The translations under genes and the position numbers were made by a program. The notes beneath the pieces are model-generated. The model worked only from the letters and a program-made list of their open reading frames with translations. It had not been told where the DNA came from and ran no database searches. A stretch of 58,071 nt of DNA, the filler included, from Sphacelaria rigidula (taxonomy: Eukaryota), in NCBI GenBank assembly GCA_964200075.2. It is 9 parts of 9 records of this genome, joined end to end, with 100 filler letters (N's around TTAATTAATTAA, not from the genome) between each part and the next. Parts side by side here need not be neighbours in the genome. Positions count along the whole stretch, not along the records: positions 6,465 to 12,828 come from CAXNAA020020515.1; positions 12,929 to 19,292 come from CAXNAA020020516.1; 7 more parts are not named here. The stretch is one strand, 5' to 3'. This document shows, one piece after another, positions 2,677 to 43,900 of this stretch; the stretch's first letter is position 1, and the number at the start of each line of letters is the position of its first letter.

Positions 2677-5600
2677 GGTAATGCTGGTGACAGATTTTAA
2701 AGCAAGGATTGAAAAAAGCAAGCCAACCGAATGATTGCATCGGGCAACACGGAGAAACAAAGAAGATTGACACGAATGGGCTAGAGGTTTTGGAGTTCCT
2801 CGAGAACAACGAGATGAAGACGATGAAAAATGGAGAAAAAAAGACGACCTCCACCATTTGCTACACAATGCATACATAACGGAGATAATTCCACTCTTGA
2901 CCATACTTCGAAGTATATTGGTAAAATATGGAAATCAGTAATAAGGAAGCGGAAAGTCCATGTATGCGCGGCAGACGTAAAAACGACGAACCGTTGCTAG
3001 TATGTTTGCCTAACATGGACAGACAGCCAACAGACGGGAGTTACATAAAAGAAAAACAGGAGAGGGTGGGACGCTGTACAGGTGCAGAATAGGTGAACTA
3101 GAAATAAAAAGAAACACAGCAAGAGCTCCGAGGTAAGGAACAGTGTAGTGAAATTTTCTGAGCTGTTGGAAAGCTCAGGTACAGTTGCTACCGAGATAGA
3201 GATAGGGCAGGAGCGATAATTATAGAAGGATGAGAGCAATTGGTTAAGCCCACAGCAAGTAAATTGCTCCGGAAGAAACTGATCGTATGCAAGGGAGCAG
3301 TAAATTGGTGGGATGAGAAAAGTCAAAGAGGTTATAAAGGGTAAGGTGAGAGGCCCACGCAAGATGCATATCGAGTAGAACTACGGTAGAGTAGGAGGCG
3401 TACGGCAAAGCTGAAAACGAGGTAAAAAAAATAGAGAATAAGGAAAGGGGAATATGGAAAGGCGTAGTTGATAAAACAAATATAAGTTTTGATGACGAGA
3501 GGGACCAATCGTTGGTTGGGATAAGAAGAATACTGTTCTGAGAAAGCAGGCAGGAGAAGCGGAACAGCAAAACTAAGAGCATAGAAGTATAACGGTAAGA
3601 CGGTTGGAAGTTCGAAGAAGAACAGCGAAACATTTGTAGAGCACTCCCGAAAACTAGGAATACCAGCAACTGACAACAGATTCGACGCGGAATTCGATTA
3701 AAAACCAAGGCGTGGGCAAAGGAAGACGTAAAGGCGTTCACAAGAGAGGAAGTAAAGGAGTGTGTAGATCAGCTCAAGAAGAGAAAGCTACGGGGGCAAA
3801 AACTACACAGTGACTGACTTCACGAAGTACGGGGGAGAGGGAATGATCACCGCGATGGCTGTGTTGTAAAATTTGATCTGGGAAAACAAGTACACACCCG
3901 AGAGATGGAGAGAAGGATTGGAAGTAAAAATTTCCGACTAACGAGACACGGCTGACCCTGGGAATTGTAGAGGGATAACGCTACTTAGCGCCATGGGGAA
4001 AATATTCCGTAAGATTTTGAACGATAGAGTGGGAAAGATGCCAGAGAAGAAAGAAAAAATCAGCGAGGGGAAGGCAGGGTTTAGGCCAAACCGTAGCTGC
4101 GTAGACTATGTGTACACATCACGTAAGATAATTTAAGGTAGCAGAGGCGCGGGGCTAACAACGTACCGTTTCTTTCTAGGCGTACAAAAGGCATACGACA
4201 CGGTATGAAAACATGGACCGTGGAAAAAGTTGTGCGATACCCGGATCAGAGGAAAGATGCGGAGAATGGTGAATAATATGGCAGAATGTGCGAGAAGTGC
4301 TATGATGCTCGACAGAAGGAATGTCGAAACATGTTGATATGCTAAGAGAAGTTGCACAAGGATGTACCTTATCACCCCACCTTATTCAAGGTATTTATTC
4401 ATGAAATGATAGCAGGAATAGAAGCAGCAAAGCAAGGAATCAGAGCGAGGGGAGATACGGTATCGGGATTGATGTTCAAGGTTGATATTCGAGGATGATT
4501 TTGTGAGAATTTTCAGAACACCAGAAGGACTGCAGGAACAGAGAGAGAAGGCGCTAGAATACACTAGAGAATGACGAGTGACAGCGAACGTAAACAAATG
4601 CGCGGTGCTTGTATGTAGCGAAGGTGAGGAGAACCCGGTAGAGTTCAAATGGAAGTGGGGAGAAACGTCGGTACCGATCGTAGACCAGTATACATACCTT
4701 GGCGTAAATATATGTATATATATATAGAAGTTCTTGGAATGCACGCATAAATAAAGTAATTGAATAAGGTGAGGCATAGATAAGATGGACGCGATCCTAA
4801 CAGACTCAAACCTCAACAAATAGCGTGAGGCATAGATCAGATGGACGCAATCTTAACAGACCCGCACCTAGACACTAGGATAAAGATATGTATCCTGATG
4901 AAGGTGATTGCACCGAAGCTGGTATATGCAGAAGAAGTATGGGAAGGGAACACGAAGTTGGAGAAGCAGCTGGAAAAAGTACGGATGGCAGCAGCTGGGA
5001 AAATACTTGGATGTGCCAAAATGATGAGTAATACAGTAGTAATACAGAACTGGTAATGTACCCACTTAACACAAATAGACATGAGAATTGAAAGGGCAGT
5101 GCAGTAGACATGGTAATTGGTGTGGCAATGCACTTTGAGGAGCATGCCAAGAAATAGAATACCGGCGATAGTTGATAGGGCTGTATGGGAGAACGTAACG
5201 AAATGGCAGGCTGGGATAAGGTGGGATAACGTAGTCGAGAAGTGTGGAAGGATATAGGAGGAAACCGAGAGGAGATAATGCTGTCTAGGTGAATATGGGG
5301 AGTACAAGACAAGGGCAAGAGATATGGTAGAAATAAGGAGAATAGAAGCGCCAAGACGGAAAGTGGACGAGGAAGAACACCTGGAGATATACGAGGGGGT
5401 CCAGAGAAGAGATAGGGATGACACGTATCTGCACGGGCCATTGGGCTACGCAAAAAAGTTCAAAACTGTGATTTCGGGTGGGGAGCCTTGACCTACTAGA
5501 AGGAGGGAAAGAGGTATACCAGTAGCCGCTGTGGTAAAGCAACAGACAGGAGAACTCATGTAGTGGCAGAATGCGAATTGCACAAGGAGGAACGGAACGT

Positions 5601-5885
5601 GTCAGAGAGGGAGATGTTGGAAGGTGAACGAATGTGACATGGAATCGTTTGGTACATCAGATAGTACCGAAGAAAAGATCGCTACACCAGGAGATAGATG
5701 GTGGCCACAGACGGCGAAACCAGGAGGGGGATGGCATATGTAAAAGGTTTTTGTGCAATGTATGGAGGAAACGTCATGAGCACCCAAATCTTGGAAGCGT
5801 CTCTAATAGGGGTAGGAACGGTGCTCCGTGTCGCAGGGGATACGTGGTCAATGGCCAGATGACTAAGGCGAGCAACAAATGAGCA
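2677..5885 (+). mobile_element. Degenerate 5'-truncated LINE (APE endonuclease remnant + reverse transcriptase) in an intron of the EF-hand gene, antisense to it
   Basis: Broken frames give VTDFKARI (cf. GDFNAR, ~2686), DPGNCRGITLLSAMGKIFRK (~3954), AGFRPNRSCVD (~4074), FFLGVQKAYDTV (~4170), VAQGCTLSP (~4351), FEDDF (cf. FADD, ~4488) and YTYLGV (~4689). Many stops and frameshifts. Confidence 0.92.
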
Positions 5886-6005
5886 CTCCACCTCCCCGCC
5901 CATAGCCTCTACCAACAACAAAAACGAAAGCTGAGTCAAAACGTTCGAGAAAAATCAGCTCCAGGGAGCGTACATGGCACTCACCACGCGGACACACAGA
6001 CGTAC

Positions 6006-6364: not shown

Positions 6365-6464
6365 NNNNNNNNNNNNNNNNNNNNNNNNNNNNNNNNNNNN
6401 NNNNNNNNTTAATTAATTAANNNNNNNNNNNNNNNNNNNNNNNNNNNNNNNNNNNNNNNNNNNN
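6365..6464. other. Artificial contig spacer (N44-TTAATTAATTAA-N44); identical spacers at 12829-12928, 19293-19392, 25757-25856, 32220-32319, 38683-38782, 45146-45245, 51609-51708
   Basis: Exactly 100 bp each, with a six-frame stop linker. The intervening contigs measure 6364 bp (x4) then 6363 bp (x5). Confidence 0.98.
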
Positions 6465-11182: not shown

Positions 11183-11733
11183 AGATAGACGTACCCAAGG
11201 CGAACAAAACGGAAACATGGAAACCGTCGAATTGAGGATGGGCACAGTTTCTACAACATGTTGGTATGTTTGATGCGCACGCAGGAGACCAGATTGGTGT
11301 GAAAAACTTCTCGCACGAGTTGGTGTACAATTGATACTGGGAGAACTCATGGACTGGTGGACCAGATGTTCATTCGTCCTAATTATCGAGTCATACGGCC
11401 CTACTCCGTATTGAGAACGCTTTTCCCCACATCGTCACACGTTGAACTCCTCGCCCCCTCCCTCCACTATCATTGGGATGAGTCCGTGGTCCCAAGGGAT
11501 CATGACCAAACAATCCGGCACCGCGTTTACTCTTGTCAAATAAACTCAAGCCGAACAAACTGTTTTTACTCATATCCTCACCCTTTCAACGCCAAAGTCT
11601 TGATGCTTTTGGAGGAAGAACCCAGAAGGTATCTGGCGGGAATTGAACGAGCGTTCTGCCGATCCTAGTCACGTCAATTGTACTGTACCGTCAGATCGTT
11701 GGGCCGCGACGGCTTTCGATGAGTGTAAAAAAC

Positions 11734-12059: not shown

Positions 12060-12195
12060 TGGCACATCTCTCAGTTACACAACCTTCCAGGGAGATGCAC
12101 AGAAGTGCCCCTCTGGCGAAGCAACAGAGAGTAGAACTCATGTAGTGGTAGAATGTAAACAATGCAAGGAGGAACGGGACGTGCTAGAGTGTGAT
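12060..12195 (+). mobile_element. Internal 3'-region fragment of the same LINE family as 2677-5885
   Basis: AGAACTCATGTAGTGG...GCAAGGAGGAACGGGACGTG aligns with ~5551-5602. Confidence 0.75.
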
Positions 12196-13967
12196 GTGTC
12201 GAAACACAGAAGTATTCCCTCGTGTACGTGCGTTGCAGTTCGTATAAAACGACCGATGAACCGCGCAATCAAAAGAAGCAAAGCACAGCACTAGCGCGAA
12301 CTTTTTCCGTCACGAGGAGTTGAATACAACGAGGAGGAACAGCCCGCTCTCCACTCTAAACAGACAGCTGCACGCTGATGATGTCTCTACTTCGTGTTTC
12401 ACAACAACTACAGGGTGAAGTGAAGTTGGCAATACAAGATGAGTCGGGCAGGCGGTAATGACTACGAACAGAGCACACGCCGTTGTCCATGTTTTATATG
12501 TTTCAAGTGATCGTTACCCTAAATGGTAGAATACGGGTTCGCTGCGGGGTACGAACCGTAGTTCACGTGTAGCCCATCTGAAGGTGAACGAAGTGACTAT
12601 TTTGATCAATCACAACTACCGAAATGATCACTACCCTCGCTGCCAGGCCTCGTTCCTGGCTTGGAATTTTCCGCGGGAAACTTCCAAACACACAGTCGAC
12701 TTCGTAAGCTGTCCGGCTGTTTTGTACATGCCCCCCCCCCCCCCCCCCCCCCCCCTCGCGAACAAAGCCGCCCCCCCGCTGGACCGAGGGGACGGCTGAG
12801 CGGGCAAACACAAAGACCACAAAACAAANNNNNNNNNNNNNNNNNNNNNNNNNNNNNNNNNNNNNNNNNNNNTTAATTAATTAANNNNNNNNNNNNNNNN
12901 NNNNNNNNNNNNNNNNNNNNNNNNNNNNCCAACTTACCCGAAATTTGGAGCAAAAAATGGACTAAAATACCCCCCCCCCCCCCTATCGTAGGATGACTCT
13001 TATGGAAAGCTACTCGTAGTGTGCCGAGGTGTTCACGCGACCAGCGTGTGCTCCAGATTGCAGCATGAACGAACTCTTATGCGCCACACTAGTAACAGTT
13101 AGGTCACCGCCATTGGTATCTCTCTTCACCCCGTATGTCAATAAGGTCTCTACAAGTGTTTGATCTCTTATACACCCCACTCAACTGGCGTGTGGCACGT
13201 TGTTCTCGTCGGGCACTCGGAGGGTCAGATGTGAGTAAAATCAACGATGAATAACACCCCTCAACTTGAAATTGAATATATTTGTTATGGTCGCACCACC
13301 GCCCTTGCTGGCATGTGTGTGGCAGAGAACAGTAGTAGCGGTGATGGGAACATTGCCCTGTTTTCCAACGACATGTTTTTCAGCGCACCGAGGCGCGTCC
13401 TGTCCAAAAGGAGAGACAGAAAGAAATGGATCTTCGCATTCGTGAGCTCGACACGCAATTGTAGGACGAGAGGAAATCTATCCGTCGCTCGATGTTTCGG
13501 CACATGGAAAATTGGGCACATGCTGGTAACATCGACGATGCCAGTCTCTCGAGAGTTTGATGATCGCCGAGCGAGGACACACAAAGGACACGGGCGAGGA
13601 GTTCCTCGCTGTCGTTGCTTCTCTGTCTGGTGATATCGTCATCGACACGCGTGTACATCGCATTCGTCAGGTGCACCTAGCCACAGTTGCTCAACTGCTG
13701 CGGATATTTGGGGGGGAAGATCGCTTCGCTCGGCCGTGAGTGTTTCGCGTCATCCCTGCCCTGCAGAGAAGAAATGCCACTTCAACCTCATTTTCGAGAT
13801 GGACCCCCTTTGCCAGGATCCACTGTTACCAAGCGCGTTCGAACAACTCTTGGCTGCTTTTAGCGGCGATTGAAGTGGAATTTCGAGGAAGAAAACGGCG
13901 CAAAATACCCCCCCCCCCCCCCCCCCCCCAGGCCATCCCGCCCGCGACGGCCCCCCCCGTATCGTAG

Positions 13968-14033
13968 TGCTCCGTCTCGAAAGGGATGCGTGGTCAATGG
14001 TCAAATGACTAAGGCAAGCAACAAATGAGTACG
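13968..14033 (+). mobile_element. 66-bp 3'-terminal LINE fragment with a 14-bp TSD
   Basis: TGCTCCGTCTCGAAAGGGATGCGTGGTCAATGG...CAACAAATGAGTACG matches 5822-5885. Flanked by CCCCCGTATCGTAG at 13954-13967 and 14034-14047. Confidence 0.9.
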
Positions 14034-14059
14034 CCCCCGTATCGTAGCATGACTCCCGA

Positions 14060-15175
14060 GGTGCTTGACGAAAACCAGGGCCTTCACCAATGGTGTGGGC
14101 TTTCCCCGGTTTGTTCACTATTTGCTTCATCGTGGTGCTGACGGTGACATTTGGCCGCTTCTTGATCAATCAGTTGGTGGCGAAGGACTTCACCCGCATC
14201 GCTGAACGGAGCCGGAAGACGAGGGACGAAAATAGCAAAGTGTTGCGGGCCGTGCTATACGCCGACGACACTTGTATCGTCTCGCGATCTCAACGAAGCG
14301 TTGCAAAGGTGATGACGATCATCGTCGAAGTCTGTGCTTCATGGCGGAAACGAAAACGCTCACCACGCACATACGCTCCCCGAGTATGAAGGCGGATGTG
14401 GTGGAGGTGGAGGCGGCGGGCCAAAGAGTCATGCTACGATAGGGGGGGGGGGTGTTTGATTCCACGTAAAAATGGGCTCAGAGGCGCGTCAGACCACCCA
14501 ACCCACTCGCGGTGTGCTTGTATTTGGGTAAAATCGATGTCAACCAGTATGAGTGAGCATTACAAATCGGAAGCAGGCGCGTTCGAACTACCGTTGGTTG
14601 CTGTTATCAACGACGATTGACAGTGGAATTTGGTGGAAGAGAACGGGTTAAACTATCCCCCTTATCGTAGCATGACTGCAATATCACAAGCAAGTTGAGA
14701 GCAATTCGTCAATGTCGGCGGCAAAATCAGTAGAGTCGGCGGTTTCACTGCCTAGATCCACAACCTCATTAGCCAGATCTGGATGCGCTTCTACAAGTAC
14801 AGCAGCGCGGTATGCGAGACCGCGTATATCGCCCTGGTCACCAAGGTTTATCTCGTGAAAGCAGAGGTGATCGAGGTACTGCTATACTGCTTCGTGACCT
14901 GGACGATCTCTCAAGACAACTTCGGCGCGTTACGGGAGGCCGACGAGGTAGTCCTGCTGAGCTGCCTCGGCAGGCATACCTCAATCCGCAGCGCTCTCGA
15001 GTACCAAATGCTGCCATACCGCTAGTTCCTCGAAAGAGCTGGTTGCGAGCGCATCGAGGCTACCGTGATGGGGCGAATCCTCGTACATGTCGGCCACGCC
15101 GTGCGCAAGCACGAGGAACGCCTCCCCAACATCGTCACGCGTGTAGTGATGGTCGGAGCAAAGACGGAGGGGGGG
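14060..15175 (+). mobile_element. Degenerate RTE-like LINE reverse transcriptase (second LINE lineage), interrupted by a MITE
   Basis: AVLYADDTCIVSRS (~14250), VEAAGQ, KAEVIEVLLYCFVTW (cf. LLYGCETW) and ERLPNIV. Frameshifts and stops present. Confidence 0.85.
14426..14678. mobile_element. MITE with GAG..CTC-type termini (Sola-like); related right ends at ~12960-12999 and ~13830-14055
   Basis: TIRs GAGTCATGCTACGATAGGGG / CCCCTTATCGTAGCATGACT(G). Flanks CAAA/CAAT suggest a 4-bp TSD. The RT-like reading resumes after removal. Confidence 0.75.
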
Positions 15176-22879: not shown

Positions 22880-25440
22880 CATTGGGTGTTTCTTCTATTC
22901 GTTCTCCGTCATACTCGACACCACAAACTTCATTTCGCGGAGGCAGTCTGCGAGCGAGACATGTGCGGCTACAGAGAACGAACGAAGTCCTCGTATCCTT
23001 GTATGTATGGAGTCAGCTTAGTAATAATGGCCGTGGTCGAAGCAATTGCGCTCATGCTTCTTGCCAGGAGTGTGTATAATACCTGCCCAGAACGCCCAGG
23101 GATTCTGTCACAATTGACGGTTGCGAATCACGCGTCGATAACCTCCGTGAGAGTCGCGTGATGGAAGCAGATGGCGCACGTTTGTTGATGGCACGGCTAG
23201 AACCTTGTGAAGGGGAATCCACCAACCGTCAATCAATGTATTGTTAGAAAACTGCTGCTTGCCTAAGACATCTGCGGACTGCAAGGTGTTTTCCAACGTG
23301 CGTTGTAATGATGCAAGAAAACTGGATGTGTATTGTCCAGACACCTCACCCGTAGTGGATGCGCCATAAGTTGTTGGCATTCAATTCGATGCATTGTCGA
23401 AGAATGGAGGCAACACGACGATCGGAATCACGAGTGATTCTGGCAGCGGCAGGTTCGGCAGTACGTCGTGCTTCCTTCTCGACAATACGTTGTGCTTCAG
23501 CCTCGGCAACACGTCGTGCGCCAGCCCCGGTAATGCGGCGCGATTCAGCCTCAACATTACGCTGTGTTTCAGCCTCGGCAACACGGCATGCTTCAGCCTC
23601 GGCAACACGTTTTGTGTGCGGCTGCGGTGACGTTGGCTTCTACAGTACGTTTTACAGTACTGTAGCATCTGACGAGCAGCTGATGTACGAGGCCTGTTAG
23701 ATGACAAGGGTAAATCAGGACGATCCTCATCAGAAAGACCGAGAAGGTTGTAACCGACGTTCCCCAGTCAAGAGGTATCTCGCCTAGTGTGTGGTGGTGA
23801 CATAGTCGCAGTCGACCGGGTCAGGCGGTAGTGACGAGCTTTGTTCGTAGAGGTGGAACCCGAAGACCATGAATTGTTATTGCTCCGCTTCTGAGAGCTG
23901 TCTCCCCGTCGTTCTGATGTACGGTAGGCTGGTCGACTCGAGGAATGGCGAGTGTTATTGCCGCAGTATTCAGGGTCACGGTCACGCCGGTTGCTGCTGT
24001 GGGGAACCGGAGTCCAGTCAGGAGATTACTGTGCAATCTGCACCTCTTTGCGAAGGCCCGCCAGAAGCTCTATGAAAGCTTCGTTAAAAGCGGGTAGGGT
24101 GTCAGACTGGAAGAAAACTGAAGAAAAGGGGTCGGAATCTTCGCGACCAGGGAGCAGGCGATACTGTCTGAACGCAACGTGAGTGGCTGAAGCCAAGTCC
24201 AACCGAACTTGTCGGGAGAGAAGGTCGGATGCTTGTGTCCGATAGGGGGTAGTGCTGGAAAGGGAGCCGACGGGAAGACGAAGAAAATGCCGGTCGGCCA
24301 AAGTGAGGCGTCCCGAATCCACATTTAAATTGGTCAGGGCCATTGCCAGTGTCGAGCGCGCTGGAGCAGCGGTGGGCACTTGTAGTGGACGGGCCGAGAC
24401 GGGTGGGCATACCATCGGCGGCGGCGGGTGGTGCCGGCCGAAGATGGCTTACGCTGAAAGGCTACAGCGAGGAAATCCACGTGGGCGAGGGTGGAGGTCG
24501 AAAGGAGCAAAAGACTCGTCCCCGGCGCGGCGGACAGCAAAACGGGCTTATTGTTCGATGGGCGACTTGTGCTCCCACACGCGTTGTGGTTCTTCTATTT
24601 GTTTCTCAAGGGTTGGTGGTTGTGCCGTAAGGGTGACATGTTGCGCAGAAAGCGTAGCGTGTTGCTTCGAAACAGAAGCCAGTTGCACCTTGCTCTCGTG
24701 GTGTAAACGACGGGCGGGCCCTGTCTGGGTGACGGTCGTGCTAGAACGGTGGTCACGCGGTTGAATACATTTTGGAAGGTGTCGCGGATGGGTTGTGCCG
24801 CGTTTCGATCGGCTGCTTGGCGGGCGTCTGACTGCTGGTTTTGGTAGTGGTCGTCGTCGCCGGTGTATTGTGGGGGACAACATCGCTCGTTAACGGTGGC
24901 CTGCTCAAGGAGACGACCGTCTTTTTCCCAGGCGAAGTGGCGGATGAGTTCTTCTTAGGCGGAACGAGTAATGCCAAGCGCGAGGGTACCCGGAGCAATA
25001 TTCGGGGCAAGAGTCCGCTTTTTTTCGAGTGGCCATCGATCGCGGGGCGGGGAGGCCACAGTAGGGGTCGTTGTGAAGTCTTCGTGAGGTTGAGAGGAGG
25101 CGGCGAGTGGGCCTGTCCTCTTGACAACTGGGAAAGCGGTAGTGGTTGAGGACGGGAATGGGCCCGGAGCGGTAGCAGGTGAACGAACCGAAGCTACAGT
25201 CGGTTTGGGCTTGGTGACGGCGGCTGGTGCCGGGGTCGGAGCCGGCGCGGGCGTCATCACGGGAGGCGCTGCCACGTAGTCGGCATCTGAGTCGCCAGTA
25301 CGGTTCGAGTCATGCTGGTGCACGGCGGTAGCAGAGGCAGACGCGGCAGTGTTGCTAGTAGTAGAAACAGTCGATATGTTGCGGTGACGTGCGGTTGCGC
25401 CATACGAAGTAGGAGATGCGGTATCCCGCGGGGGCAAGGG
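22880..25440 (-). pseudogene. Decayed long ORF, probably retroelement gag/ORF1 (Pro/Thr/Ala-rich N-terminus, coiled coils)
   Basis: Chain of broken minus-strand ORFs (24955-25437, 24548-24883, 23108-23380) without obvious introns. No enzymatic motif recognised. Confidence 0.35.
23455..23610 (-). repeat. 21-bp coding-type tandem repeat encoding RVAEAEA-like heptads
   Basis: TGCTTCAGCCTCGGCAACACG and variants recur at multiples of 21 bp. Confidence 0.75.
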
Positions 25441-26469
25441 TACGCGTCATCGCGGTTAGTTGGCCGGTGGGTGATTGGATCAACTTTTGGGTGGTGAGGG
25501 ACAATCCACATAAAAGTTCACACCGTGACTGTGCGAGTTAGCGGAGCGACGTCTGGGGTGTGTGCTTTTTTTCCCCTCACACTTTGAACCCCCCCCCTTC
25601 CTCGGGATGAGTCCGCGGTCTCAAGGGATCAACCCATCTCTTCTCCGGTACGTGCCTTTCATTTTGACCTCGCGGATTGGATCAGCATTCCCGCACCGCG
25701 TCAACTCACGTCACACAACCCTAGTCGACTACTTTTGTTTACTCACCTTCGCACGCNNNNNNNNNNNNNNNNNNNNNNNNNNNNNNNNNNNNNNNNNNNN
25801 TTAATTAATTAANNNNNNNNNNNNNNNNNNNNNNNNNNNNNNNNNNNNNNNNNNNNACATTACCAAAATAAAAAAAAAATAAGAAGAGTGACGCCACGCA
25901 AAGCGATGAGAAGTAGCGTTCAACGGGGAGAGAAAAGAAAGGAAGACAAAACAAAGAAACAAACAACAAACGCCAGATCTATCAGAAGTGTACATCGAAA
26001 GAAGGGAAGAGAGAAGATAACAAAGGACAAAAAAACAGAAAAAAACAGGTGACACAGCAAATAGGGTGGTGAAATGCAAGACAAATCAATTAGATTCTTA
26101 ACGATAGTGTGAGCCCGCACGCCCGTGCGCTTTTCCCCAACGATTACGAGAATTCCGTTCACACAACTTAACGCTACTGTAAGGACAGTATGCTGCACGC
26201 ATCTTTCCATTACTGATAACAATTGACTACACAAGAGGTTCCTTCTTCCGTTGCATCGTTCATAGCAGGGCGAAAACACAACATTTGGGTAACTTTCAAT
26301 GCGTTGGATTAGGCGACGACTGTACTAGGTAGAATACAAACAACGGTTGCCTATGATCATGCAGCCATACAATACCGCTGATGACATTGGTTTCGGCGAT
26401 TTGTGGGTCGCACTGACATACCCTCCTCCCCACATGATATCAGCTGACTACAACAAACAAAACATGGAA

Positions 26470-29860: not shown

Positions 29861-30070
29861 TGTAACGCGTGAGAGGGCCGCGTGCTTAGAGGACCGCGCC
29901 GTAGTTCAAAACACCGCAGGATCGATGTTTTTCAAAACCAATCGGGCCAATCCCTGCAGGTACCACGCCTCTGACCATAACCCCAACACTAACCTTAACC
30001 TAACCCTATCCGTGGGGATGTTCAAATTCCGATGCGGTCCTCAAAGCACGCGGTCCTCTCACGCATTACA
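29861..30070. mobile_element. 210-bp MITE with TGT..ACA ends, a 4-bp TSD and internal telomere-like repeats
   Basis: ~37-bp imperfect TIRs TGTAACGCGTGAGAGGGCCGCGTGCTTAGAGGACCGC / GCGGTCCTCAAAGCACGCGGTCCTCTCACGCATTACA. ACAG on both sides. Internal CTAACC-type repeats at ~29975-30008. Confidence 0.88.
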
Positions 30071-32097: not shown

Positions 32098-32219
32098 TGT
32101 AATGCGTGAGAGGACCGCGTGCTTTGAGGACCGCATCGGAATTTGAACATCCCCATGGTTAGGGTTAGGTTAGGGTTAGTGTTGGGGTTATGGTCAGGGG
32201 CGTGGTACCTGCAGGGACT
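32098..32219. mobile_element. Second copy of the telomere-motif MITE, inverted and cut by the contig end
   Basis: Near-identical reverse complement of ~29951-30070, including GGTTAGGGTTAGGTTAGGGTTAG. Confidence 0.9.
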
Positions 32220-33221: not shown

Positions 33222-33507
33222 TTGTCGCACTTTAAATCCCTCCCCTCCCTCGGCATGGGTCCGTGGTCTCAAGGGATCAACCCATCTCTCCCCCGGTACA
33301 CGCCTTGAATTTAGGTCTCGAGGATTGGGTCAGCAATCCTACACTGCGTCAACTCACGTGACACAAACTCAGTCGACTACTTCGATTACTCACGTTCTCA
33401 CGCTTTCCACATTGGAGATCAGATACTTGAAGAAAAACCCAACGCATCGGGAATCGAACCCTCGTTATCTCCACCCTAATGGCGACAGTCGGACCATTAC
33501 ACCACGA
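33222..33507 (-). mobile_element. tRNA-derived SINE, family B; other copies at ~25575-25756 and, more diverged, ~11435-11700
   Basis: Minus-strand head TCGTGGTGTAATGG (A box)...GGGTTCGATTCCCG (B box). Body GTCCGYGGTCTCAAGGGATCAACCCATCTC is shared among copies. Confidence 0.8.
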
Positions 33508-33836
33508 CAATCAATTTTTGTTTCGACCCCGGTCCGTTCCGGTTCGAGTACTCTCGCACATGCTTTCAGGGTAGTACCCATTCTCCTGGATGGCGGGGGT
33601 TATTCTCATAATCTTGCATGCCGTAATCATATGACCATAGACCTCGCATCCCTACAAAGCCCGGACGGAGCACGCCGGGGTTTCGCCGGAGGCTCGCTGG
33701 ATTGGGGGCGGGGGGCTGGGAAAGGCGACGAAGTCATCACTCAAACATGAAATTTCTGAAAAGCTTCTGAGTTGACAAAACAATTGCTGCCGCGAGGGTA
33801 TGTACGGCGGAAAACTGAAGAAAACAAACGTCTTAC

Positions 33837-33912: not shown

Positions 33913-34720
33913 CTGTCAAATACAGCCCACGTCGCAATACAAACATCATGCTCACGTCAGGATTACTTCACGGCGGCGTATAGTTAATGAAGGGTCGGCG
34001 CCAAATCTCCTGGACGACGGAAACGTTCTATAGCTTGAAAAAAAAACGTATGAGTAAGGTCGTCACGCAGGAGGGGGGGGAAAAGGCGAATATATATAAT
34101 ACATATATATTCGTAATGGGTTATACCTTAATATCCATGATTTTGCTGGCGTCGACCCTTGATTAGCTATATACGCCACCGTAATACTTTGTTCGTTCCT
34201 TTCAGATGGTGAGAGTACTGTATGCAGGGCGCAGCTTGGCGCCTCGCTCCCGTAGTATTCCATGAGTGATGGGTGAGACCTCATACCCAAAAAAGTATGT
34301 GGCCGAAACGAATAAACCGTGATCTGCCCACGTATTCCAGGGTAACGAAAGGGGCGAGATGCTGAGCACACTCCACCGTACAGTGCGCACCTCCCTGTGA
34401 TCAAAACTGGAATTATAGTACCAGTTCGTATGTAGTATATCATGGGCTAGTTCTGGGTCGGGCGGCAGGAGAGTAATAACCGTGAGGGGTTCAAATCCCG
34501 ACATGACTATTTTATTAATATTTTTTTGGTTTCCACACTGGGTTCATCTTCGTCATCGTGGAAAGCGTGGGGACGTGACGTAACGCGAGGTTGAAAAAAA
34601 AAAAGACGATGAGACAATTGACGGGATGCGAGCGTGGTCATCATCTAGACCGTATAAATCTTGTGGAACACACCAACGAAGCAAGTCCGTTCGTTGCTTC
34701 GTACAATACAACCCCCCCCC

Positions 34721-34803
34721 TCCGTCTCAAAAGGGACGCGTGGTCAATGAACAAACGACTGAGGCAAGCAAAAAATGAATACTCCTCCCCCCCCCTCCCC
34801 CCC
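34721..34803 (+). mobile_element. 3'-terminal LINE fragment between two C-tracts
   Basis: TCCGTCTCAAAAGGGACGCGTGGTCAATG...GGCAAGCAAAAAATGAATAC matches the 5822-5885 family. C9 upstream and C-rich tail downstream. Confidence 0.85.
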
Positions 34804-40492: not shown

Positions 40493-40675
40493 AGAAAGGG
40501 CTGAATGAACCCTAGCCAGACAGGAAGGGAGACTGGGCGTGAACTAGGGAGGGAGGCAATTTCCTTTACAAATCCGGTTGAAAGCGAGCTGTCCGGAAAT
40601 TATGGCGACAACGCATGAGCGTGACCAGAATACCGAGTGGTCGGAGCTGCTTCTATCCTAATTGATGGAGGGAGG

Positions 40676-40840
40676 GGGGGGGGGGGGGGTTTTATTTTTT
40701 TCTCGCCTTAGCCGCTTGATTATTGACCACACATCCCCTTCGAGGCGGAGCACGGAGANNNNNNNNNNGGACGAGCAGAAAGAAAGAGGAAACAGGGCGG
40801 GGGGGAGCGCAGGTCGGGGGGGTGGGGTGGTGTGGGGGAG

Positions 40841-40871
<31 letters not shown>

Positions 40872-40946
40872 GTTTCATTTGTTACTCGCCTTAGCCGCTT
40901 GATCATTGACCACACATCCCTTTCGAGACGGAGCACGGAGACGGAG
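40676..40946 (-). mobile_element. Short poly(C)-tailed LINE 3' fragment with a 13-bp TSD; appears twice around a 10-N gap
   Basis: TGATGGAGGGAGG at 40663-40675 and 40947-40959. The element reads ...GGCGAGTAACAAATGAAACG-CCCCCC on the minus strand. Confidence 0.85.
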
Positions 40947-43900
40947 TGATGGAGGGAGGAGAGCAAGGGTAGGGAGAGTTGGGGACGGGGAACATGTGTT
41001 CCTGAAATCTACGGTTGCACATCTGAGTTGAAACGTTCAACATGCTGGAGAGGTCAAGTTGTGTGTATGTGTAAATTCGTTTTCTAGACAGAACAGGTGC
41101 GTGTGAAAATAAGGGGAAGTAAAATAAAATCGCCCGCGCGGAAGACGTGCTAATAATTGCATTTCGAACATAGCTTTGGATCCGTGAAGCACGTACAAGA
41201 CTTGGTAAGTGAAAACGGGAGGGGATCCACATGACGAGAAACGAATGGACATTACTCTCCACACAGAAAGCACCAAGACGAGTAGCGGTAAATGGGTTGA
41301 AAGGAAAAAGAAAACGTCCACGCTCCCGCTGAGGTGCTACGATGTAAGAAAGAGAACGGTCTCACGCACTGTATAGCGGAGTTTCGAGAACCTCTGAACG
41401 GCAACCCATGAGTCCCTGGTAACAACTGATAGAGCGAGTGGTTGGTAACCGCTGAAAAATGAAATGAAGACATCTTCGAGCACATATAGATATAGATACA
41501 TATCGATGCCGCCGCATCGAACACGATATTTCTGGGAACTGGTGAAAAGACCGTGAGGGTGGCACATGGGGTGCGAGAGCTGTAGGGGAGATTGAACAGT
41601 AGTGGGTCGCCCTGCCTGAAAACGTCACACCTACATATGAGTCAACTTGTCGGTATTGGACACGAGGGTCAAAGGGCACTTTGAAGTCGATTCGGTCGCG
41701 GCGTCCTCCGGAGGGCTGAGGTTGTCCGCGAGGGTCTCGCGCGCTCCTCCAGGGATTCGATGGTCTCCTGTCAATCGAAATTCATGTCTACTTCCGGGAG
41801 CCTCATATGTGGAAAACGTGAGTCCGGAAAGGTGCAAATGACGGAAGCCCCTGGTCGAAAGACCGGGGCGTGTAGACCGACGACGAAACGGGCCTGGTCG
41901 ATATATTTCGCTCCGCCGTGATTGGGCAGGTTGCTCCCTGACTTATTTTTCATTGTTTCACCAACACACGGTCAACCCTGTGTCAGTGGGGGGTCGGTCC
42001 CAAAAGGTTCAACAGGTGACGGAACTGAGTACTGTTTTCTTGCATGCTTGATCCGGATCTTCACGCGTGCGGGAAAGTGTGCCTTGTACACTCGATTCGG
42101 GTTTCACAGGTGAGGGGTAGGTAGCTTTTGGTATACATGAGATTCAAATCGCGCGGGTGGACGACAAGCTACAGTGCTTGCCTGACCCGAGTGATATAAA
42201 TGACGACCATGTGATGTACAGATGACACAGTTCTGCAAATCAGATGTACACGAGAGTGTGTGCGTGAAGCGGGTCGTACAGCTCGTCGCTCGGCAAATAT
42301 GTACGGGGTAAGTGGGTCCCACGGATCAGCATCGGAAAAACGTGCACGGGTGACAGCACACCTCGGACAGATCATGATCTATGCCCCAAATGAGTTGACC
42401 TCGATCTCTGTCACGAGCTGATCCGTCCGACATGTGCAACCCTGCAGCATAGAGCATGAGTTGAGGAAAGGGATAAGTACACTGCAGTAGTTGGATATGA
42501 GGTGTATATTTCTTGTTGGGGAAAACTTGAGCATCTTCTCTTATGGTACGGGTCGGCGACGGTATAGCGCGGTAGGGTGGGCGACCGACTTGCTTACATG
42601 CTCATGGACAGACAGTGACGGCAGTACAAAGCTGCGTGTTGTTCAAATATTTCTTCATGTCGCACTGTATGCCGAGAGTATGGGTAGTCCCGCGATGCCT
42701 GTACTGTACGTTAGTCCCTCTTTCACACCCTATACCACACGAAACTACTGCTTGACGGATTCAGTCGTCTTTTTCGATCCAAAGCGTGCAAATTCGCTCG
42801 GGCCCAAACCGTGCACAACAGACGAATGCTATTCCGTCGCACTCATTCGTTCGACAGCGAAAAAAATGATGAAGACACAACATTCGTAGATGCCTCGAGA
42901 GCCAGTCTTGCGCCAAAGAAAGAAATGCAATTCAAATGCCAAGATGCCCGCATACAAGAATCGTACGCACCTCACGTATCTTTCGACGGTTTAGTATTGT
43001 ATTTTCAGTACAAGTCAAGCCTTACTTTGCTTGTGGATTTCTTCGCCGTGTCTGAACGAAACCAGCCTGAACCTTGGCACAGAGGTAGACCACAACACAG
43101 ACAGCATATTGCCGGATCGGTGGCACGTTTTACGTGGTGCGCCAGACGCACGAAGCGAATACGGATTTTGGGCAATGCCATCGCTACGCTCTCAAAACGG
43201 AGTCCACTCGGCCCAGACTGCAGACGTCAGTGGATGCATATGTTGACACGCAGATGCGCTCACTTCCACATCATGACCTGCTGGGTGGCTCCTACCCCGG
43301 CAAACAAACATCGATCCGTTTTGGGCACACTCTGGTTGATGTCATTCTGCGCGGTACAGCAGTGGGCGGTCTAACTATTCAGGGGTGTTTCGGGGTTTTC
43401 CTCGCGTACTACTTTTCGATAGAACTAAAAAATTCTAGCGTCGGTAGATTTTGGTACAATAAGCAGATCATCCTCCAAACACAGTGCCCAAGTCAGTGTT
43501 AGTTGGTGTTATCTGGCGATACGAGTAAATACCCCGTTCATCAGGAGGGTGTTTTTGACCGTGAAACACAGTTTTTCGGCTCTAGTGCAATGAGTAGGTG
43601 AAATTTCAAAAAAATGAACCTGTATATTTCTCCACAAGTATGATCGGGACAGGTTCGATCAATGAAAATATCGAAGAGTAAAAATCTGGACTGAAACGTG
43701 GCAGGACCCCTGATGACCGGTCAGCCCGTAAGTCACTCAATATTGAGTACATATCACTTTTTTTCTTGGAATGTGGAGCGTATAAAATATCTTCAGATCG
43801 CCAAAAAAATGAGCGGTGGCAAGCAACTGGAGCCCAAAAAAATCGCCAATTACGAAAAAAGCACGAACTGCCACAAAATGAATAGGTAGACCGCCCACTA

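Follow-up and report, generated by a model that had tools for sequence, protein, structure and literature searches.

A C-tailed, RTE-X-like LINE of Sphacelaria rigidula that inserts at C runs and abounds as 66-nt 3' stubs

The closest described counterparts of the element analyzed here are two LINE families of Ectocarpus, RTEX-1_Ec32, annotated as 'single EN-RT ORF; (C)n 3'', and RTEX-2_Ec32, annotated with '(C)n termini/TSD' and a 'C-rich' target-site duplication (TSD) (Dinatale 2025, PMC12477816, Supplementary Material 3). The best matches of the Ec32 RTEX families are RTEX-4_NV and RTEX-1_BF, RTEX-1b contributes 3007 copies and 1.06 Mb to that genome, and the non-autonomous partners of these families share 60-100 bp at the 3' end (PMC12477816). 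The term 'C-rich' does not occur in the main text of that paper, the insertion habit being recorded as a note in a supplementary table. Green-algal RTEX elements end in (CA)n, (CAA)n, (CCAT)n and other repeats (Ohshima 2013, PMC3747384).

The window, the whole 58,071-nt stretch of S. rigidula DNA that was analyzed, consists of nine unrelated contigs of ~6.36 kb each, joined by N spacers, so that the copies named below represent unrelated loci rather than a single locus. The spacers, of the form N44-12 bases-N44, are found at 6365-6464 and at seven more places, spaced ~6.46 kb, and mark the window as an artificial concatenation. Genome-wide searches were carried out on a 244-Mb assembly of 27,214 contigs (G000), to which only the first window contig maps as one piece. 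At 13968-14033 (+ strand), the window contains a 66-nt 3' stub of a LINE that is coding almost to its end, comprising the last 19 codons, the stop codon and a 5-nt 3' UTR, with 19/19 of its C-terminal residues identical to the intact homolog P0002. The sequence-only reading had proposed that this insert is flanked by a 14-bp duplication beginning with C, and this is the case: the 5' copy (13954-13967, +) starts with five C inside a C8 run (13951-13958), and is repeated as a C5 tract plus the remainder of the duplication at 14034-14047 (+). Within the stub, positions 13993-14015 (+) form a conserved stem-loop with a 3-bp stem, an AA bulge and a 5-6-bp stem, which is likely to act as the RT recognition signal.

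The sequence hit by this insertion (13830-14055, +) is the right end of a MITE-like element, identified by homology to 14426-14678 and 12973-13001, and the C run lies in its terminal inverted repeat. At 14426-14678, a MITE-like element is present in full between the same inverted ends, and provides the empty form of the target. Since the uninterrupted end motif has 1389 exact matches in G000, several of them as inverted pairs 160-350 bp apart, the C run at 13954 predates the insertion, and this abundant family, with a C/G run in its inverted ends, has served the LINE as a target repeatedly. Positions 14056-14385, which lie between the two MITE ends, hold a fragment of another RT with an LYADD motif, presumably RTE-like.

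The longest copy in the window (2677-5887, +) is an old, broken and 5'-truncated 3.2-kb element retaining part of the endonuclease, the RT and the C-terminus. It begins immediately after a C9 tract (2668-2676) and ends in C-rich sequence, with no recognizable TSD around it; its sense strand is strongly purine-rich, with GC and AT skew of ~+0.29 in 4001-6000. A 64-nt stub at 34720-34783 (+) is likewise placed between a C9 run (34712-34720) and a C-rich tract, in line with the earlier observation that both copies start just after such tracts, and the 13-bp duplication reported for the 40.7-kb copy is present at 40663-40675 and 40947-40959, bounding a stub that spans 40663-40959 (- strand). This last copy is present twice around an N10 gap, and is probably one insertion assembled twice. 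All four window copies that retain the 3' end were found to extend 4-5 nt past the stop codon and then to run into C-rich sequence. A short internal fragment of the zinc-knuckle region was detected by tblastn at 12094-12225 (+). Elsewhere in the window, a 120-nt inverted repeat (29951-30070 and 32098-32217; 97% complementary, 2 kb apart) possibly belongs to a DNA transposon, and a 24-nt tandem repeat at 23446-23613 may encode a peptide repeat.

The assignment of the element to the APE-type LINEs holds in its intact homologs. The Pfam families Exo_endo_phos and RVT_1 lie within one ORF, with PF03372 followed by PF00078 in P0002 and in L145 and L147, two intact metagenome relatives that are 75% identical in protein. 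The close intact relatives encode the endonuclease, the RT and a CCHC knuckle in a single ORF of 1328-1427 aa, in which no RNase H family match was found. Broken copies in G000 carry PF03372, below its cut-off, together with PF00078. Of the 1976 RT candidates in this assembly, 150 were scored and none had an intact ORF, the longest open frame being 627 aa; young long copies may have been collapsed in the fragmented assembly. A search of the atlas returned only RVT_1 clusters. On a quick tree of 121 rows, with a 200-residue cut that excluded one G000 locus and other short matches and with no named RTEX reference among its rows, four G000 copies grouped with the intact relatives and Ectocarpus proteins in a clade of 17 rows (SH-aLRT 100). 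The RT fragment is 61% identical to P0006, the best long Ectocarpus match, and the named proteins nearest to the element are those of Ectocarpus, in keeping with a brown-algal host. Two protein clusters contain Ectocarpus sequences, which matches the count of autonomous RTEX families in Ec32, and proteins of two other Ectocarpus strains fall in the same clusters and clade as the LINE described here.

The results identify a real, abundant LINE, a further member of the C-tailed elements that carry an RTE-X annotation in Ectocarpus and a putative one of the RTE-X clade as such; with the Ectocarpus elements it shares a single EN-RT ORF, a (C)n 3' end, a C-rich TSD and a non-autonomous partner. Its putative identity with RTEX-1/2_Ec32 rests on their description and on the proteins of other Ectocarpus strains, rather than on consensus sequences. 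The sequence-only reading knew of no C-tailed family and made the novelty of this one depend on the absence of an earlier description; because RTEX-1/2_Ec32 are already annotated as '(C)n 3'' with 'C-rich' TSDs in the supplementary tables of PMC12477816, that claim falls. The RTE families of Ectocarpus (RTE-1/2_Ec32) were considered as well, and are ruled out by their (CAA)n ends (PMC12477816) versus the (C)n tail observed here.

To count 3' ends across the genome, we used as anchor the terminal 23-mer, which stops before the tail, and obtained 3362 exact matches in G000, against 0 for the reversed-pattern control. The C-run 3' end first noticed in the window extends to the whole assembly, with 2287/3362 matches continuing into TACR-CCC and only 2/3362 into NNNN-AAA. 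The scarcity of AAA ends and the conserved 3' signal described below set the element apart from an L1-like relaxed poly(A) system. We then studied 100 copies, taken as the first listed matches (on the largest contigs) and not as a random draw. In these, C accounted for 0.86-0.95 of positions 5-9 after the anchor, declining to ~30% by positions 24-30; at least three C followed the anchor in 82/100 copies, with a median tail of 7, and A5 was found within 15 nt of the anchor in 0/100. At one 3' junction (L109), the last element bases are present three times, resembling template slippage.

The proposed preference for C-run targets also exceeds background, as C5+ was present within 35 nt in 56/81 resolved 5' flanks, compared with 6/77 windows located 100 nt further out. 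The base preceding the C run showed no clear bias (T28, G15, A15 vs background T257, G152, A203). A search with collapsed C runs recovered a TSD in 29/82 resolved copies, versus 3.6% of mismatched pairs, and none at the chosen threshold in the other 53/82; a strict search returned 19/81 (control 7/801), and an exact search returned TSDs of 8-20 bp in 25/130 copies, 30 of which came from a query ending in CC and are hence biased. The fixed 3' end, variable 5' truncation and variable TSD conform to the hallmarks of non-LTR LINEs. Besides the MITE-like family, a second dispersed repeat with an internal C run has received stubs (window 11460-11502, 25577-25734 and 33225-33382; L103, L139, L022), as has, frequently, a third repeat end, in which the C run forms part of an inverted repeat (L007, L010, L044, L071, L101). 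In L036, ten extra bases between the TSD and the stub at the 5' junction resemble the TTAGGG telomere repeat.

A C tract next to a C-run target may derive from either, and the 25 copies with exact TSDs allow the two to be compared. Under one explanation, the element has no C tract of its own and cuts inside C runs, its 3' C's arising from the target duplication or from later slippage. Tails equal to (4/25) or shorter than (11/25) the target run agree with this explanation, as do copies with 0-2 C (L036, L056, L028), but the tail is longer than the target in the remaining 10, tail length is unrelated to the target run (rho 0.21, p 0.31), and clean targets with only 3-4 C are followed by tails of 6-14 C: 3 vs 14 C in L089, 3 vs 6 in L008, 3 vs 7 in L053, 3 vs 13 in L088 and 4 vs 10 in L135, with the interrupted C runs of L120, L030, L002, L006 and L036 left out of this count. 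One-sided growth from C3 to C14 would itself be an unlikely event, and we regard an element without C's of its own as improbable. The clean short targets with long tails indicate instead that the element itself supplies C's. For targets of 10+ C, tails were shorter than the target run in 7/7 cases. Long tails on short targets and shorter tails on long ones thus indicate that the element RNA brings ~8 C and that the nick can fall within the C run.

The origin of these C's can be addressed through the intact relatives. L145 and L147 end in stop-GTACG followed by C8 and C10, respectively, and the tract in the copies (median 7-8) is as long as this genomic tract. Distant relatives end in other simple repeats, such as (CT)n, (CA)n, (TACA)n and (TCAC)n. 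Given the matching lengths and these alternative repeats, the C tract is most likely DNA-templated, that is, copied from the donor and not added afterwards, as judged from genomic sequence. The sequence-only reading had put forward a poly(C) RNA tail that mirrors the poly(A) of L1, taken here to mean a genuine tail attached post-transcriptionally. Such a tail would account for element-derived C's outnumbering the target run in several clean cases, and for the tails of 21 and 57 C observed in two of the 100 copies. A median of 7-8 C, close to the genomic tract of the intact relatives, is at odds with it; (C)n can be placed alongside the simple repeats that end the distant relatives; and the stem-loop and partner family described below point to stringent recognition. 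Nor is any pathway known to us by which eukaryotes would add poly(C) to RNAs of this sort, and we consider an added tail very unlikely. The poly(C)-tail mechanism is thus unproven and probably too L1-like, and the analogy with L1 is only partly right: the element does bring C's to C-run targets, but the mirror image was overstated in view of the short tract, the conserved 3' stem-loop and the partner family. The templated tract remains our preferred reading.

The 3' signal is evident as a constraint on coding sequence. L145 and L147 differ by a synonymous change in 334/884 shared degenerate codons overall, but in 0/18 within their last 20 codons (p ~2e-4), and this last block contains 2 base differences, whereas blocks elsewhere average 13.4 and never fall below 6. 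A stem-bulge-stem descriptor, written after most matches had been viewed and hence not blind, yielded 109 matches in 341,628 nt (80 related loci), 11 of which lie 27-33 nt before the stop codon of the longest ORF. On 17 chosen ends, 84% of cells pair and 5/8 pairs change on both sides; none of 500 shuffles reached the same cell count, and slid controls gave 20-48%. The fold of the 72-nt stub taken as a whole was not better than that of shuffles (z -1.18). A stem-loop 27-33 nt before the stop is also seen in nine distant relatives (L151, L153, L155, L157, L159, L170, L184, L190, L193), whose tails, where visible, are (TTTA)-, (TACA)-, (CT)-, (TCAC)- or (TGTAA)-like repeats.

A second, non-coding family of ~310 bp (family B) possesses the same 3' end and C tract. 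It has 1979 exact 24-mer matches in G000, a C3+ tail in 25/30 copies and no protein match. The window contains a 3' piece of family B between C-rich tracts (33605-33690, -), a larger piece at a contig edge (38788-39048, -) and a 5' piece, also at a contig edge (45247-45374, -). Family B has the conserved 3' stem-loop in common with the LINE, which is the pattern of stringent LINE/SINE pairs; recognition in this LINE thus looks stringent in type, rather than following the L1 pattern.

Analysis of copy length revealed a sharp boundary. Among the 82 resolved copies, with the other 18 of the 100 lying at contig edges or gaps, 46 measure 60-72 nt and 33 measure 63-68 nt, with 15 shorter and 21 longer; the mode is 66, and 25/82 fall at 65-67 nt. 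In G000, a 21-mer reaching position -64 has 3241 matches, about as many as the terminal 23-mer, and extension by nine bases past -64 leaves only 519, against 2100-2400 expected from divergence alone. We found no published account of such a 66-nt cliff in the open-access literature searched. It is most improbable that the excess of stubs is an artefact of fragmented short-read assembly. The 27,214 contigs, the contig edges or gaps at 18/100 copies and the tendency of C/G runs to break assemblies would favor that explanation, but unique flanks are resolved in 82/100 copies, many with TSDs, and loose ends with G runs occur at the same boundary (-64 and -66) in independent Logan contigs of four public runs, one of them from another organism (X8).

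In L145 and L147, positions -79..-74 are predicted to pair with -66..-61 as a 6-bp hairpin (probability ~0.7 and 0.9), which places the commonest 5' end at the hairpin loop. Family B is without the upstream hairpin arm, and 16/24 of its resolved copies measure 28-53 nt, with none at 54-86 nt; the putative link from hairpin to cliff is drawn from two families. Other candidate causes were rejected. Pairing between the stub's ends as sole cause is out, as family B can form this pairing too and has 0/24 copies at 54-86 nt. Microhomology is out as well, since 25 junctions comprise 8 blunt, 7 with 1-3 nt and 10 with extra bases. The stub is not a SINE, as it has no Pol III promoter head of tRNA, 5S or 7SL origin, being wholly LINE coding sequence plus 5 nt with unrelated target DNA as 5' flanks. 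Stubs of both families are found stacked in tandem, each in the C tract of the preceding one (L057, L056, L008, L131; contig joints).

Stubs might also constitute a minimal non-autonomous element, copied from stub RNA supplied by a master copy or by trimmed read-through transcripts. The sharp mode at 65-67 nt (25/82), the ~6 stub-length matches for each longer match, the broken state of all RT-bearing copies found in G000, the ability of the two stub ends to pair and the recurrence of the boundary in another organism's run (X8) are all compatible with this idea. Stubs and longer copies, however, share the same two alleles (19:15 and 12:6), which are also those of intact L145 and L147, and show similar mismatch levels (1.0 vs 1.3 per 29 nt). 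Copy length varies continuously between 27 and >400 nt, stubs have neither a promoter nor a common 5' head, family B can pair its ends as well and shows no such peak, and the missing young long copies may simply be collapsed in the assembly. The shared alleles favor truncation of the LINE RNA over a separate master, and we deem an independent stub element unlikely.

We consider it likely that this brown-algal, RTE-X-like LINE combines a self-encoded stem-loop, C-tract priming at G runs and stub formation through stopped copying. One ORF of ~1330-1430 aa (APE endonuclease, RT and CCHC knuckle) reaches to 5 nt before a short C tract, and its protein would bind the stem-loop in its own last 20 codons, as their conservation suggests. 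Following established target-primed reverse transcription (TPRT), the endonuclease would nick the G-rich strand within or at a G run, and the freed G-ended primer would pair with the C tract of the RNA and prime synthesis; a second nick would then generate the 8-20-bp duplications beginning with C's that are seen at the junctions. Copying would usually end ~66 nt in, at the hairpin loop just upstream, and the observed end could result either from an RT stop or from a cut in the RNA. As copying would usually end there, stubs accumulate across the genome, many of them inserted into the tails of other stubs or into the C runs of other repeats, and the same enzyme would move the ~310-bp non-coding partner sharing its 3' end. 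A further proposal, which we advance only tentatively and hold to be doubtful, is that the main product of the LINE is a defined ~66-70-nt RNA, cut or stopped at the ORF hairpin and copied by the RT into C runs, where it would form a minimal retroposon without a promoter; the stem-loop embedded in the coding sequence would then be the general recognition signal of a wide RTE-X-like group in which the tail unit is lineage-specific, with (C)n as the brown-algal form.

The C tail and C-run targeting were in print only as supplementary table notes; here they are counted, and tail is separated from target. The parts worth following are the stub cliff and the coding-embedded stem-loop. A 66-nt cliff shared by thousands of copies would count as exceptionally sharp for LINE truncation, and directs attention to an RNA structure that can be tested. 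A homopolymer C/G system implies an APE endonuclease cutting G-rich strands, and lends itself to testing whether LINE targeting is set by pairing between tail and target or by the preference of the endonuclease, with assays made possible by the intact ORFs of L145, L147 and P0002. By their thousands, the C-flanked stubs also give rise to C microsatellites in these genomes and cause breaks in their assemblies.

In mammalian L1, which has an ORF1, the poly(A) end of the RNA, a long tail added enzymatically, pairs with the nicked T-tract strand, and the TSD begins with the homopolymer. The LINE described here resembles L1 in TSDs starting with the homopolymer and, under the proposed mechanism, in its homopolymer RNA end and the complementary nicked strand, but differs in its single ORF, short tract and conserved signal, whereas L1 recognizes poly(A) itself. 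L1 recognition is classed as relaxed (PMC3747384). With the stringent LINEs reviewed in the same work (UnaL2, I factor, plant RTE, green-algal RTEX), our element shares a compensatory 3' stem-loop, LINE/SINE pairing and repeat tails; it differs from them in that its repeat unit is a single C and its stem-loop lies in the ORF, followed by a 5-nt UTR. Chlamys Penelope-like elements (Craig 2021, PMC8557442) similarly insert at (C)n repeats in algae, but do so with a GIY-YIG endonuclease and PLE RT, an unrelated enzyme. By description, the nearest system is that of RTEX-1/2_Ec32 (PMC12477816), likewise a single EN-RT ORF with a (C)n 3' end, a C-rich TSD and thousands of mostly short copies, although the 66-nt stub class, the in-ORF stem-loop and the tail-versus-target analysis are found only here when set against its supplementary account. 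Family B, in turn, is the counterpart of RTEX-N1/N2_Ec32, which are non-autonomous, annotated with an unknown 5' head, a ~60-100 bp common 3' end and a C-rich TSD, and measure 604-607 and 188 bp (PMC12477816) compared with ~310 bp for family B.
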